In this document: positions 35,128-43,963 of the stretch, piece by piece
Numbering within the stretch: position 1 is the stretch's first letter
Layout of the letters: every line of letters begins with the position of its first letter
Assembly (NCBI GenBank): GCA_951804945.1
Contig: OX638155.1
Location: forward strand, 62,868,001 to 62,932,000
Source of the DNA: Podarcis cretensis
Lineage: Eukaryota
DNA: 64,000 bases
Reading direction: 5' to 3'
Program-made: the position numbers and the translations under genes
Notes under the pieces: generated by a model
Databases searched by the model: none
Seen by the model: the letters and a program-made list of their open reading frames with translations, nothing else
What the model was told of the DNA's origin: nothing

Positions 35128-35419
35128 AATACCCTCCAACATTTCTCCAATGAAAATAGGGACGTCCCATTCCATCACGATAATTTTACTGTTTATAGCC
35201 CACACATCTTACTGGGTTGCCCCAGCCATTCTAGGCAGCTTCCAACATATATAATAACATAATAAAAAAATAAACATTTTTTTAAAAACCCTCCAACATT
35301 TCTCCAATAAAAATAGGGACATCCTAAGGAAAAGTGGGACATTCCAGGATCCAGTCAGAAACCAGGGTGGCTTATTTATCAGGGACGTCCCTGGAAAATA
35401 GGGACACTTGGAGGGTCTT
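35128..35419. mobile_element. Non-autonomous DNA transposon (same family as 3956-4299)
   Basis: ATACCCTCCAACATTTCTCC.. / ..GGGACACTTGGAGGGTCT, flanked by TGTTTC / TGCTTC. Confidence 0.7.
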
Positions 35420-35440
35420 TGCTTCCCCCCTTGCCATGTA

Positions 35441-36040
35441 CCGTATTTTTCGCCCTATAGGACGCACTTTTCCCCCTCCAAAAATGAAGGGGAAATGTGT
35501 GTGCGTCCTATGGGGCGAATGCAGGCTTTCGCTGAAGCCTGGAGAGCGAGAGGGGTCGGTGCGCACCGACCCCTCACGCTCTCCAGGCTTCAGGAGAGCC
35601 ACAGAGCCAGCCCCACAAGGTCGGGGGACAGCGGGGAGGTGGAACGCCGCCATCCCGCTGTCTCCCGATGTGGTTTGGAGGCTGACGGCGGGGAGACACG
35701 TGCTTCTCCCCGCCGCCAGCCCCGCAAGCTCCGAGGACAGCTGGGAGGCGCAGCGCGTCTTCCCACTGTCCCTGGACCTGGTCTGCAGGCGGGCGGTGGG
35801 GAGAAGAGCGCTTCTCCCCGCTGCCTGCCCCACAAGCTCTGGGGACAGCTGGGAGGCGCAGCGCGTCTTCCTGCTGTCCCTGGACCTGGTCTGCAGGCGG
35901 GCGGCGGGGAGAAGAGCGCTTCTCCCCGCTGCCGGCTCCACAAGTGCCTGGGGGGCAAATAAATTTTTTTTCTTTATTTCCCCCCCAAAAAACTTGGTGC
36001 GTCCTATGGACTGGTGCATCCTATGGGGCGAAAAATATGG
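35441..36040. mobile_element. Young Tc1/mariner-type MITE with a GC-rich internal palindromic tandem array
   Basis: TA|CCGTATTTTTCGCCCTATAGGACGCAC ... GTGCATCCTATGGGGCGAAAAATATGG|TA, with 108-bp internal units starting at 35691, 35799 and 35907. Confidence 0.9.
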
Positions 36041-37790
36041 TAATACATTGTGAAAGTTTAGATCCATTGCCCTCAACCTAGTTGGTCAGTGTTTTCATGC
36101 CCTCTATAACTTGTTTCTTAAAATGTTAAATATTTTTCAGTTACTATCTACATCCCCCCTCCCGCCAAAAATGATTGTCACAGAAAACTGAGAATCAATA
36201 GACCTACAAGGGAATTCATTTCTACAGAACCGAGGTTTTGTGAAATCTTTTTCATCAAATGTTGTAACCTTGTGAAGAGGCCAAGTTTGACGTCAGTACA
36301 AACTCGGCAACCTTCTGTGAAACAATCCCCTTCATCAGTCTTCTATGAAACAGTGAAAACTTTAAAGATAAGTGTTTGAAAAATGTTGTGTGAAGCTATT
36401 TGACATTCTGTAAAGGCCTACCTGTTGCTTTTGAGGGACTTTGCTTTCTCCCCCCCCCCTCTTTTTTCCAAAAAGAAGTACCAATAATAGACTACCTCAG
36501 TCAGAAATAAACTGGAATAAAATATATATGATAGCATGTATGTTTTTATTTTCTTTTTACTCCTCCTTTCCCCACCCAAAAAAACCCTGTGCATTAGATT
36601 CTGCCTTTAAGGCTACTAGTCATCCAAGTCTGAAATTAGCCTATGTATTACTTGTCCATCTCTCCCCTCACATACTTTTAATAGCTTATCAGCCTCCAGG
36701 ACTGTTCCTTAGAGCCTCTCTAATTGTCACCTGAAACTTCATTAAGTTTAAAGCATGAACACATGTATAGAAGATATAATTCTACATAGCATACCTTTGC
36801 ATAGAAGGGCATCTTCTTGCCATTCCAACTCCTTCACCAGTTAATCATTCATAATTGGGAAAGACTGATAGGTTTACAGGTAATAGGCCAATTATTATTT
36901 TATGGACATGCCAAATTGTTTTCTTGTACTTACTTATGCTCAAAATAACAAGCATTCATTAATTTCTTCATTGACAGTCATGCTTATTCCCATGCTTTAT
37001 CATGGCTCTAACATGCATATTAACCTAATTTATTAATTTTTATCGCTCATGGGCACTAAACTGATATTTCACCAATGTAACAAACCCAAACTATTATTTC
37101 AATTTCAATGAGCTGATTTACCTGAAACTTTTTACAACTCATCAATATTTAAAGCTATTTCCTGTTGTATATTCCATTTAAAAAAAAAACAAAAAAAAAA
37201 ACCACTGGCATTTCAAACCTTTGTTTTGCCCCACTTTTGATTTTTCTCCCAACAAAATGGTAGCTTGTATGTGGACCCATTTGCAATAGCTGCTCAGTGT
37301 GTGACACCAGGGAGCTTCCCTGAATAATACCATAAATGCTTTCAAAAACACCCTTCCTGGGGCCTCTAGGTTCACTCAGTGAGGAACTAGAAATGCACCA
37401 CCTGGTTTGTACAGCCAATCCAAACTGTCCAGCATTTAATTAATTTTGAATGTTTTGTGGTATATTTCTATTGTTATCCCATGATGCACCAGAAATATTG
37501 GCTAAAATGATATTTGAGTCCTAATAATTAATAATAATAATATCAACTTATTCATTTGTGATCTGCAGTGGTGTGGTCACTTGTGCAGTGTAGGAATTTG
37601 TGCAGTGTAGGGATTCGTTCTGTCAGCCTCTATAGACACATGCCCAGAGAAAGTTCATAGTCTTGTTCCCAAGAAAATGCAGGCAGCTGTGTTGACCCAG
37701 TATATAGAAAAGTCAATGAGCAAAAAACATTTCAGCTTAATGTTGTGTTAAGGGCTTTCCATGTTCTCTTAAGTGCCAAAATACCAAGAG

Positions 37791-41172: not shown

Positions 41173-42710
41173 GAACTCACCATGAGCGCCTTTCTTGTTC
41201 TCTTATAATGTATTTCTTATCAATAAAAGATCTGATGTGGCATGAGCAAATTTTTATTCTGAAAGTGGGGCCCAGAGGAAAAAGTTTGAGAACCACTGAT
41301 GCAGAGTCACCTCTGCAAACAGGTTTATCTCCTGCTAGCCGAGGGCTGCAATGAGGAGGAGAGGAAATGCTGTCTCTTGGTCTTTGTGGATCATGCCACA
41401 AAAATCAAGACACATCATTTGCTCTCCTCTAACCCATTTGTTGCAGGGCTGTGTGTGAGGGAAAGAGTGTGAAAGAGAGCACACACATGCATGAGTTGTG
41501 GCTGTGCGTGAGAGGGAGTGAGAGCAGGAGAGAAAGCCGTGTACCTACATGTGTGGGGAATGCTGTCAGTAATAGTGAGAGAGAGGGAGGGAAGGAAGGA
41601 AGAAAGAAAGAAAGAAAAAGAGGGAAGACAGAGCAAGAGCAAATCTGGAGACATAACCCTTCCTTTTGCTCTCTGTGTGTGCCCCTACCCCCACTGTGAT
41701 TCATGCGTAGGATTTGATTTTGCTCACACTTGTGGGAAAGGTTGCCACAGGTATTACCTTCAGAAAGATCCAATTAGACCAACAATTAATGTTGCAAAAG
41801 GCAAAGTAAATGCCCTAGCTGCCATCCTGCCCAAGCACAGGAACCATTTCCATTGTATGACTCGGCCTGAGTTAAAGGTAGAGCAACCGCCTTCGCTAAG
41901 CCAATTCTAGTGCTTGCTTCCACCTTAACAAATAAACATTTATAAATGAATGCAAGCATGTGTGGGTGGAGCTCATTTTCTAGACATGTGATTCTTGATG
42001 AAAAACATCTGATTTATGCTGGCACATGTGGGAATGCTTTTAGAAAGCCCCCATTTTCATGTGGAAATTAAATATAGGCAATGGGAAAACACTTTCTGTA
42101 TATACAAATCTTGGCTGCACGGTTAACATCTGGAATACATTCCATTTCTGTAAACTATACTTGCCTCCCTTTCTACCACATTTCTAGAGCAGCAAGCAGC
42201 AAAGATGTACATGGATATTAAGCATGCTTTCGACGAGCTTCTTCCCATTTGAGACAATCTGCCATATGCCAATGGGATGTTACTGGGCATGATGTAATTC
42301 AAATCTCCCTAGGAAATCTGAAAGCGCTCTTTTTACTAGGAATCAGGCCTCACAAACAACTTGGACTTTAAATCCTCCTTGCTGGGTTAAGTAAATATGA
42401 TCTGGGTCATCTTCTCCGAAGTGGCCTTTGGCACACAATTATAGTAGCCACAACTGGTTTTACAGCTGCATGGCCTAATGCACATCTGACATCCAGCAGG
42501 CAGGGAGCAGATCTTTGCCTCTTACCAAAGCCCCCAGATTCTCCATGAATGCCCAGAATGGAAATGTAGAGTTAGGTTGCCAAGGGTTGTGCTTTGATCT
42601 TGTAAACTTATATCTGGGATAATTTCTCTGCATCATTCTTAAACTTAAATATGACATTCATAGAAAGGAGAGTTTAGAAGACACACACATGCACACATTA
42701 TCATCTGAGG

Positions 42711-43322
42711 TGTGATGGCCTGGGACTCGGGCTCAGATTCAGAACCAGAGGAGTCTCAGTCCGCACTGGATCCTTTGCCTCGGGTGGCATCTGAACCAAG
42801 TCTGGGGCCTGATTCTGAACAGCCCCAGTCTGCACAGGTTCCCCTGCAACAAGCACCAGCTGGGCTGAGTCAGGGGCCTGAGACTGCCCTGGCTCCAGAT
42901 GCAGGGATTACCTCGTTGCCTTCAGCTGGGCAATCACTTACAGTTGCTCCTCTACCAGTTACGTCAAGAGAGGCTGAGGCGGCCTCTGGGTCTAGTAACC
43001 CACCGACATCTCCCAAGCTGCAGAGACTAAGGTCAGAGAGAAGGAGAGACCTGAGTACTCGCAGGAGGAGTGCTCACCTTCGGGCAAGACAGGGAGGTGA
43101 GTCACCGGGGGGATCAGGACCGGCTGTTACCCCGACAAAGATAAAAGACCCCGCCCCAGGTTTCGGGAGCAACATTGCTGTTTGCTAGAACCTGCCTGAG
43201 ACCCTGTGCCCGATCCTGCCTGGTTTCCTGACTTGGCCCTGTCGGACTGACTCCTCGCGGTACCCTTGGATTCGGGACCAGACCTGGACTACATCGCTCA
43301 GGTTACCCCCGGCCCCAGCACA
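42711..43322 (+). mobile_element. Solo LTR (Gypsy-like), intact
   Basis: TGTGATGG...CCAGCACA termini (TG..CA, imperfect inverted ends), a perfect 5-bp TSD TGAGG (42706-42710 / 43323-43327), and a TATA-like GATAAAA near 43140. Confidence 0.88.
42715..43188 (+). CDS. LTR-internal ORF (157 aa): acidic Ser/Pro-rich N-terminus with a basic RRRSAHL motif; function unknown
   Basis: ATG at base 5 of the LTR, open to TAG at 43186-43188. The motif layout is echoed in the LTR at 1-422. There is no expression evidence. Confidence 0.35.
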   Translation: MAWDSGSDSEPEESQSALDPLPRVASEPSLGPDSEQPQSAQVPLQQAPAGLSQGPETALAPDAGITSLPSAGQSLTVAPLPVTSREAEAASGSSNPPTSPKLQRLRSERRRDLSTRRRSAHLRARQGGESPGGSGPAVTPTKIKDPAPGFGSNIAVC

Positions 43323-43650
43323 TGAGGATAGAGAAGAGTTGTGGGTTTGGGTGAGCTATCTCATGCCACTGATATATCTAGCTACTGATATACCTGTTAA
43401 CCTTACCATAGCTGAGAACTAAACTCTTGAAGACTTTTTCCATTGACTGCTATATTCTGAATTGGCTTTTGGTCTGTTTATAAAATTACACCCCTCTAAC
43501 TGCATGTACTTGCTCTTCTTCCCCACCTAATTTTATTTCTCTGCCCAGCTCTTGCACTCAATATTACTTCTAGGCTACAGATCCTATGTCTACTTTCTTC
43601 CTGTGCTACTTCAACTCCAGCCTATAACAACATTGAAAGCAACAGTTGAC

Positions 43651-43963
43651 CAGAACCAGCTCTACCATTAGGCAGAGTGAAGCAATCACCTCATGTGGCA
43701 GATGCTGAGGAGGACAGCAACAGCAGCCCCCAGCTGCCACTCTTGAGTCCCCCGTCCCACAACCATTCTGCTATCTTATCACACAGCCTGTCCTAAGGCT
43801 CCTAATCTGGGCTGATGCCTCAGGTGAGGTGGGGGATACTGTTGTGTCACCAGCATTAAAGTAGAGCTCAACTGCCGTTCCAATTGGCTTCTATACATGA
43901 AACGGGGAGGGCTCACCATCTTGTCTTTCACCTCAGGCAGCAAAATGTTTTGGGTTGGCACTG
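43651..43963. mobile_element. Old hAT-like MITE
   Basis: CAGAACCAGC.. / ..GTTGGCACTG termini; homologous to 29583-29822. Confidence 0.55.

Follow-up and report, generated by a model that had tools for sequence, protein, structure and literature searches.

A reading frame in the LTR of a squamate chromovirus encodes the carboxyl-terminal tail of its integrase and ends in a candidate nucleosome anchor

Introduction

How Ty3/gypsy retrotransposons of vertebrates choose their target chromatin and hold on to it is little known. In Tf1 the primer is the 5' end of the element's own RNA. Papers given below by PMC number are cited for individual passages of their text. Self-priming is described for the Tf1/sushi group (PMC6317226), the attachment motif TGTYANR for Sushi (PMC3601003), and the definition of group I chromodomains is found in PMC3605345. 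Extension of pol into the 3' LTR is documented in plants, namely in CRM group A and in the sugar-beet elements Beetle7, Bingo1–4 and Bingo7 (PMC3059260, PMC3605345), so that the statement that LTRs are normally non-coding, from which the original prediction on the locus described here started, overstates how surprising a coding LTR is.

The end of the reading frame studied here resembles a motif known from host chromatin proteins. Its forms are the HMGN core RRSARLSA, RRSSRLTS in tardigrade Dsup and RRSARIAT in yeast Dot5, in all of which nucleosome binding depends on the three arginines (PMC13347269, PMC12480509). The Dot5 motif binds the acidic patch and requires R6, R7 and R10 (PMC13347269). 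In viruses, the carboxyl-terminal domain of MLV p12 ties the pre-integration complex to nucleosomes (PMC6021111), and the chromatin-binding site of foamy-virus Gag tethers to nucleosomes (PMC9040877). No description of an LTR-coded tail of squamate chromoviruses was found in the open-access literature searched, nor an HMGN-like motif on a retrotransposon integrase in that literature. Judged by title and abstract, none of the listed papers that combine RRSARL and retrotransposons deals with an element that codes the motif, and the text of two of them agrees with this. PMC4657000 concerns in the text consulted a Copia element and has no bearing on an integrase-tail motif.

The solo LTR in the window

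The window, i.e. the whole stretch of DNA that was analysed, comprises 64,000 nucleotides of Podarcis cretensis. The element of interest is 612 bp long with 59% GC, starts with TGTGATGG and ends with CCAGCACA, the termini being TG..CA (Table 1). The features first reported for it (length and termini, TGAGG target duplication, 157-codon ORF and RRRSAHL) are all present in the sequence. No internal sequence of the element is found anywhere in the 64-kb window, which identifies it as a true solo LTR. The ORF opens with the ATG at 42715 and its stop ends at 43188; the His codon CAC of RRRSAHL lies at 43075–43077. The ORF length of 157 codons is specific to this copy, the usual one in its subfamily being 142. 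Length differences of 1 base near 43104 (relative to 50 of 61 sister copies compared) and of 8 bases near 43146 (56 of 61) place the last ~26 codons of the window copy out of the family frame and carry it past the usual stop. In itself the locus is a decayed solo LTR of the ordinary kind, one that likely makes nothing.

Two other stretches of the window were noted. Positions 35372–36067 are GC-rich and tandem-like, with overlapping ORFs of 155–231 codons on both strands, and probably represent another repeat. Positions 43680–43950 have a high contig depth, with many joints at 43680–43710 and 43914–43954 that mark the ends of another repeat.

Table 1. Coordinates in the window of the solo LTR, its target-site duplications and its internal features.
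Feature	Position	Strand	Basis
Left target-site duplication TGAGG	42706..42710	+	sequence
Solo LTR, Ty3/gypsy chromovirus, subfamily A	42711..43322	+	family copies, full-length relatives
Putative U3 region, containing the entire family reading frame	42711..43162	+	self-priming site at 43163
157-codon ORF; codons 1 to ~131 correspond to the integrase C-terminal tail	42715..43188	+	junctions in relatives
Acidic start of the tail (MAWDSGSDSEPEESQ...), conserved at the protein level	42715..42774	+	dN/dS 0.14–0.17, codons 1–20, between subfamilies
Basic end of the tail: SP site, then Arg-rich stretch (11 K+R in 30 residues)	43006..43095	+	
RRRSAHL, CpG-decayed form of the HMGN-like RRSARL motif of the family	43060..43080	+	
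GTGAGT splice-donor-like site directly 3' of the motif	43097..43102	+	typical of subfamily A only
TATA-like box GATAAAA, putative promoter; its TAA is the usual tail stop in sister copies	43140..43146	+	
Self-priming site; here the element RNA, and with it R, would begin (putative 5' end)	43163..43173	+	complementarity to primer-binding site
Right target-site duplication TGAGG	43323..43327	+	sequence

The LTR family and its subfamilies

A DNA search of the genome with the element gave 2,019 candidates, the best 40 scored being 87–100% identical over the whole length. The exact 20-letter pattern of the LTR start occurs 1,361 times in the genome and its reversed control 0 times; the family is therefore counted as at least 1,361 LTR starts. 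Fetched loci provided a sample of 168 distinct LTR starts, 155 of which have the basic anchor. Each of these 155 LTRs was assigned to subfamily A (74 copies, the one of the window among them), B (35) or C (46) according to which of three real copies it matched best, subfamily A being sampled with a bias towards copies that resemble the window's.

Subfamily A copies are usually 614–634 bp long. In subfamilies A and B the majority of copies are solo LTRs flanked by 5-bp duplications, which have 0–1 mismatch in 62 of the 74 A copies and 27 of the 35 B copies. Matches to the integrase end that are at least 75% identical to the query number 46 among the 150 scored, which gives ~30 solo LTRs for each internal-bearing copy as a rough lower bound. 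The joints listed for the element in three DNA runs include no empty-site joint (26 joints stood outside this listing). A MITE or DNA-transposon nature of the element was discarded, as the family has gag-pol copies.

The modal distance from the ATG to the anchor is 303, 267 and 237 nt in A, B and C, and the usual frames have 142, 129 and 114–119 codons, respectively. Frames of 142, 129 and 119 codons stop at the TAA of the GATAAA box and the shorter C frames just before it. The 142-codon stop inside the box is found in 24 of 49 frame-open A copies. The nearest named proteins are from Podarcis muralis (77% and 83%).

Some features of the insertion sites were recorded. On contig C1, 68 of the first 100 LTR starts listed lie within the first 20 Mb of its 141.6 Mb, in a listing that reaches 121.7 Mb and has no control repeat; such a skew may stem from targeting or from retention. 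The flanks of 72 solo copies average 49.6% GC. The same 72 copies, all with a perfect target-site duplication, display a palindromic target preference, with A three bases before the duplication in 39/72 and T three bases after it in 32/72; T is rare at the first base of the duplication and A at its last.

Full-length copies and the integrase tail

Searches for close LTR pairs and for a purine-tract pattern yielded solo LTRs only; the first full-length copy was traced through an LTR flank without target-site duplication, in L040. The full-length copy L122:227-5756 has 576-bp LTRs that are 98.4% identical and the target-site duplication CACAA. Three natural frames code for the Pfam order Retrotrans_gag, RVP_2, RVT_1, RT_RNaseH, rve, SH3_Tf2-1 and Chromo; the 4.4-kb interior is entirely gag-pol, with no env, and its coding is broken at two places in RT/RNase H. 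The last natural frame has 744 codons; from RNase H it continues past the chromodomain and the polypurine tract and enters the 3' LTR uninterrupted by any stop. Alignment of the chromodomain (PF00385, E 2e-14) to HP1 places Y, W and Y opposite HP1 Y, W and F, i.e. the three aromatic cage residues of group I. Podarcis muralis database proteins of 1,551 and 1,559 aa extend from the Gag start to the tail end, and RRSARL is present in 5 of the 6 listed members of that species with a chromodomain.

The chromodomain-to-LTR spacing was compared in 30 junctions: 15 are in frame, 14 are off by 1–2 bases and 1 is mis-anchored. Reading from the chromodomain to the motif is free of stops in 12 of the 30. 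In the 14 shifted junctions (within L142–L171) the shift sits in G-runs just before the LTR, and most of their LTR frames are open. This variation in G-run length may reflect a slippage hotspot, assembly error or a switch. As 15 of 30 copies are not in frame, the tail is often lost, and tail-less copies could be viable. The exact pattern for a subfamily-A LTR behind the polypurine tract was absent from 36 matches; the one internal-bearing A copy found, L172, is a match with mismatch. It is 5'-truncated, with 1.75 kb of interior left, its LTR is 85% identical to that of the window over all 612 bp, and its chromodomain is in frame with the LTR.

The anatomy is thus practically beyond doubt: the ORF is the carboxyl-terminal tail of the integrase, read into the 3' LTR. 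This alternative had been put forward in the original prediction and is borne out by the in-frame junctions both of full-length copies and of the truncated A copy. The tail consists of an acidic start, a Pro/Ser/Ala linker of variable length and a basic end. It has no Pfam match at E up to 10, and the basic peptide has no PDB match. The family displays the characters of Ty3/gypsy chromoviruses of the Tf1/sushi type, namely TG..CA LTRs with target-site duplication, the order Gag-PR-RT-RH-IN without env, a carboxyl-terminal group I chromodomain and self-priming.

Other chromovirus families of the Podarcis cretensis genome, represented by L181, L182 (a young family with identical LTR pairs) and L183–L185, also read 66–102 codons into the 3' LTR; their tails have acidic linkers and Arg-rich ends (TPTPRRKLSRRESRRR) with no RRSARL, and self-priming sites are present. 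In an unrelated Gypsy family (L072:1-3385) the pol frame is open over 1,000 codons and terminates short of the 3' LTR, with the tail end PQRTRRPPAYLEDY.

Self-priming and the start of the element RNA

No tRNA primer site is found 3' of the 5' LTR. The 5' ends of 22 copies were examined and 13 were readable, 10 of which carry a self-priming complement. The complement is 10 nt long and pairs with a site of the LTR that follows GATAAA by 30 nt (the box is mutated in one copy). At one position of the pairing, 6 copies have one base pair and 4 have a compensatory pair. In shuffled LTRs the longest complementary match averages 6.4, with a maximum of 12. The site is present in 66 of the 74 A copies, its position in the window being 43163. 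The element RNA would then start ~30 nt after GATAAA. Such a start is downstream of the ORF, which would place the family frame wholly in U3 and restrict its translation to the 3' LTR.

The sequence around the LTR ATG deviates from the Sushi attachment motif at a single base, and this overlap accounts for an ATG fixed at base 5.

No RNA source among the matches listed contains the window stretch. Contigs that are RNA only by guess cover the LTR and the L122 interior and are uninformative on starts, strand and level. The 5 joints listed in four such contig sets include 0 with GT..AG ends, although contigs of this type cannot show absence.

Selection on the reading frame

Is the frame a selected protein, or did it arise as a by-product from GC-rich promoter DNA and from read-through? 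When the element is shuffled with its dinucleotides preserved, an ATG ORF of at least 157 codons occurs in 19 of 2,000 cases and one of at least 131 codons in 78 of 2,000 (~4%). ORF length alone is modest evidence, and the family data show that the frame is real. Values of dN/dS between subfamilies were computed from frame-blind DNA alignments of real copies, no consensus being used, with frame-open copies only (A 49/74, B 24/35, C 39/46) and 60 random pairs each, which are not independent. The ORF frame gives 0.36–0.49, the antisense frame that shares its third positions 0.45–0.55 and the other four frames 0.88–1.64. Codon bootstraps on copies of modal length yield 0.38 (0.25–0.56) for A-B, 0.36 (0.22–0.55) for A-C and 0.46 (0.29–0.73) for B-C. 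Constraint is found at both ends of the tail, codons 1–20 having 0.14–0.17 and the basic end 0.16–0.35, with 0.59–0.70 in the linker. The modal gaps between subfamilies measure 18, 18/48 and 30 nt and so keep the reading frame, as had been expected of a coding sequence; the aligner often splits the B-C gap into non-triplet halves, with only 34 of 86 gaps triplet. The frame is under purifying selection between subfamilies, at both tail ends, and the coding and selected nature of the ORF that had been proposed holds, with dN/dS well below 1.

The GC content of 59%, the ORFs of at least 131 codons in shuffled DNA, the relaxed linker and the frequent loss of the junction frame speak for a by-product. 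However, A-C differences favor third positions even at non-CpG sites (0.32, 0.19 and 0.44 by codon position), conserved stretches of the protein have a high synonymous divergence (pS 0.52–0.67 versus pN 0.15–0.20 in A-B and A-C), and the motif is kept in Anolis (see below). The frame-wise and regional dN/dS values largely refute the by-product explanation, which is left highly improbable.

The selected product is an integrase tail rather than a peptide made by the LTRs that stay behind. Within subfamilies dN/dS is 0.42–0.69, a value that mixes CpG decay and sub-lineages. Substitutions private to single copies were scored in 48 A copies with target-site duplication, leaving out protein-ranked loci, and in 30 B copies. 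The A solo copies have 43 synonymous and 103 non-synonymous private changes (omega 0.97, p 0.86, 7 stops) and the B solo copies 31 and 64 (omega 0.81, p 0.36, 4 stops). Constraint between subfamilies combined with neutral private changes shows that the protein is selected during replication of the element, not after a solo LTR is left behind.

These data bear on the other alternative of the original prediction, that solo LTRs, or host transcripts spliced at the donor after the motif, yield a stand-alone or fused chromatin-binding peptide. Genes of this kind in U3, of the MMTV sag or HIV nef type, have their own transcript, separate from pol, made by splicing or from an internal promoter; the frame of the lizard element is continuous with pol. 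Most copies have the ATG at base 5, the frame stays open as far as the motif in 49 of 74 A copies, and a GGTGAGT donor follows the motif in 62 of 74 A copies. The LTR ATG is also the start of the Podarcis muralis model LOC114604991, which is joined at the donor to sequence further downstream. Private frameshifting indels in A and B are also fewer in the coding part (19 in 28.0 kb) than after it (41 in 20.1 kb), but the control is weak since the non-coding part has tandem and homopolymer tracts. Against a stand-alone product are the neutral private substitutions, the loss of the open frame before the motif end in 25 of 74 A copies and the position of the ORF upstream of the putative transcription start. 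The donor-like site is found in only 2 of 35 B copies and 0 of 46 C copies, and it is absent from the youngest subfamily. In Podarcis cretensis the locus that matches LOC114604991 is interrupted by in-frame stops, two within the LTR and another downstream of it; domestication of this model was rejected because of them. The claim of a peptide made by solo LTRs is thus not supported and is improbable. Public gene models run from the LTR ATG into host DNA or gag (L227:8725-9811; P0002, P0202, P0004, P0005, P0028). Such models are probably annotation artefacts or chance exonisation.

The arginine motif and its conservation

RRSARL is present in 38 of 46 C, 17 of 35 B and 29 of 74 A copies. The last Arg codon of the motif is CGC in 44 of 46 C copies; the 74 A copies have 35 Arg, 22 His, 13 Cys and 4 other codons. 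This split between His and Cys is the two-strand pattern of CpG decay, from which the His of the window copy derives, and G stands at 43076 in 71–77% of the family contig depth in three DNA runs. Arg is therefore the family state, as the CAC codon had led to suppose. The family has R-R-S-x-R-[LI] with three arginines and the window copy, with its His, does not. In the family RRSARL is followed by other residues, the final SA of the HMGN core being missing, and the motif belongs to an integrase tail rather than to a small host nucleosome-binding protein with the full core.

Two clusters from Anolis carolinensis (94 and 366 members) align at ~40% identity over 95% of the 200-residue region compared. 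A chromodomain is recognisable in 17 of 30 listed members. The carboxyl terminus of 16 of these is RRSARI or RRSLRI; an SP site precedes it by ~20 residues, and the linker differs from the lacertid one. Shuffling of the Anolis tails produces the motif at frequencies of 0.00015 and 0.0008. In one Anolis protein, P0008, little sequence follows the chromodomain. Judging from the proteins, the Anolis tail may likewise be located inside an LTR. The lacertid-anole split is deep, over 100 million years, and the common motif may reflect vertical descent or horizontal transfer. In a representative search, RRSAR is present in 1 of 79 single-chromodomain matches. Note that the ENA protein P0097 has a chromodomain followed by a ~100-residue tail ending LRRSARLAAAH and is possibly a non-squamate case of the same design.

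The basic end might act as a nuclear localisation signal (NLS) or as a non-specific DNA/RNA-binding tail of the integrase, its likeness to HMGN being incidental. Its 11 K+R in 30 residues fit this role, acidic-then-basic tails without RRSAR are found in Crotalus, Vipera, Rhineura and other families of the Podarcis cretensis genome, and Ty1 integrase has a carboxyl-terminal NLS needed for transposition (cited in PMC3605345). Anolis, however, keeps R-R-S-x-R and varies the motif only at position 4 (RRSARI, RRSLRI), as HMGN, Dsup and Dot5 do. An NLS would usually tolerate Lys, and no Arg-to-Lys exchange occurs among the 16 Anolis motifs, which counts against this explanation. It is considered unlikely, yet the main competitor.

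An acidic-patch role of the RRSAR[LI] end is predicted with slightly better than even confidence, because the motif matches those of HMGN, Dsup and Dot5 and because MLV p12 and foamy-virus Gag set a precedent for tethering. The proposal is weakened by the related tails without the motif, by the junctions of which half are not in frame, by the incomplete HMGN core and by the Arg-rich composition, which fits an NLS or DNA binding equally. Complex prediction with lizard H2A, H2B and a natural Arg-bearing tail peptide gave a score of 0.02 (mark 0.34), which speaks neither for nor against binding. In the window copy His replaces one of the three arginines on which Dot5 depends, and this copy is expected not to bind even if it were made.

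Discussion

The data define the window locus as a decayed solo LTR whose frame corresponds to the last ~140 residues of a chromovirus integrase, and an RRSARL end serving as nucleosome anchor is, on the whole, the probable function. The tail would be translated only from the 3' LTR of the full-length RNA, as the end of Gag-Pol, and the ATG at base 5 would be part of the integrase attachment site instead of a start codon. The group I chromodomain is predicted to read methylated H3 tails, and the arginines of RRSAR[LI] may insert into the acidic patch of H2A-H2B, as those of HMGN, Dsup and Dot5 do. The RRSAR end would thereby be a second grip beside the chromodomain that keeps the integration complex on chromatin, like MLV p12 and foamy-virus Gag. 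A more general model can be offered tentatively, with somewhat less than even confidence: the squamate chromovirus integrase would be a two-handed nucleosome reader that combines a methyl-lysine chromodomain with an HMGN-type acidic-patch anchor coded in U3 of the 3' LTR, kept between lacertids and anoles and with the G-run as possible on/off switch. Such an anchor would be the first on a retrotransposon integrase and a counterpart of the MLV p12 and foamy-virus Gag tethers, and acidic-patch binding, if true, would extend tethering from viruses and host proteins to retrotransposon integrases.

The integrase tail also explains why thousands of lizard solo LTRs contain a small ORF with start codon and splice donor. 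Annotators already turn LTR ORFs into spurious or chimeric gene models, and UniRef already lists the Podarcis proteins under the name 'Gypsy retrotransposon integrase-like protein 1'.

The lizard element shares with the Tf1/sushi group the Ty3/gypsy domain order, the carboxyl-terminal chromodomain, self-priming in place of a tRNA primer, TGT.A..CA ends and the 5-bp target duplication. It differs from this group by the ~120–140-residue tail past the chromodomain, coded by the 3' LTR and ending in RRSAR[LI]. The run of pol into the 3' LTR is common to plant CRM group A and to sugar-beet Bingo1–4 and Bingo7. In CRM group A, however, a CR motif replaces the chromodomain, whereas in the lizard element the group I chromodomain is complete and precedes the polypurine tract, the LTR-coded part being an addition.

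The tail ends resemble the HMGN, Dsup and Dot5 motifs, compared here by sequence alone, in R-R-S-x-R-[LI] with three arginines, the eighth residue being the sole difference between Anolis RRSARIAA and Dot5 RRSARIAT. They differ in that the motif is carried by a retrotransposon integrase and not by a host chromatin protein, and in that the window copy has His at the third arginine. Like MLV p12 and foamy-virus Gag, the lizard tail has a short Arg-rich peptide, for which tethering is predicted; those peptides are Gag products while the lizard one is an integrase tail. The SP-x3-RLR arrangement of MLV p12 (PSPMASRLRGRR) has the spacing of SPELQRLR in the lacertid tail, a match that may be due to chance as its RLR part is not kept in Anolis. 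Extension of pol into the 3' LTR is thus already known from plants, and the apparent novelty is RRSAR[LI] on the tail of a squamate integrase.
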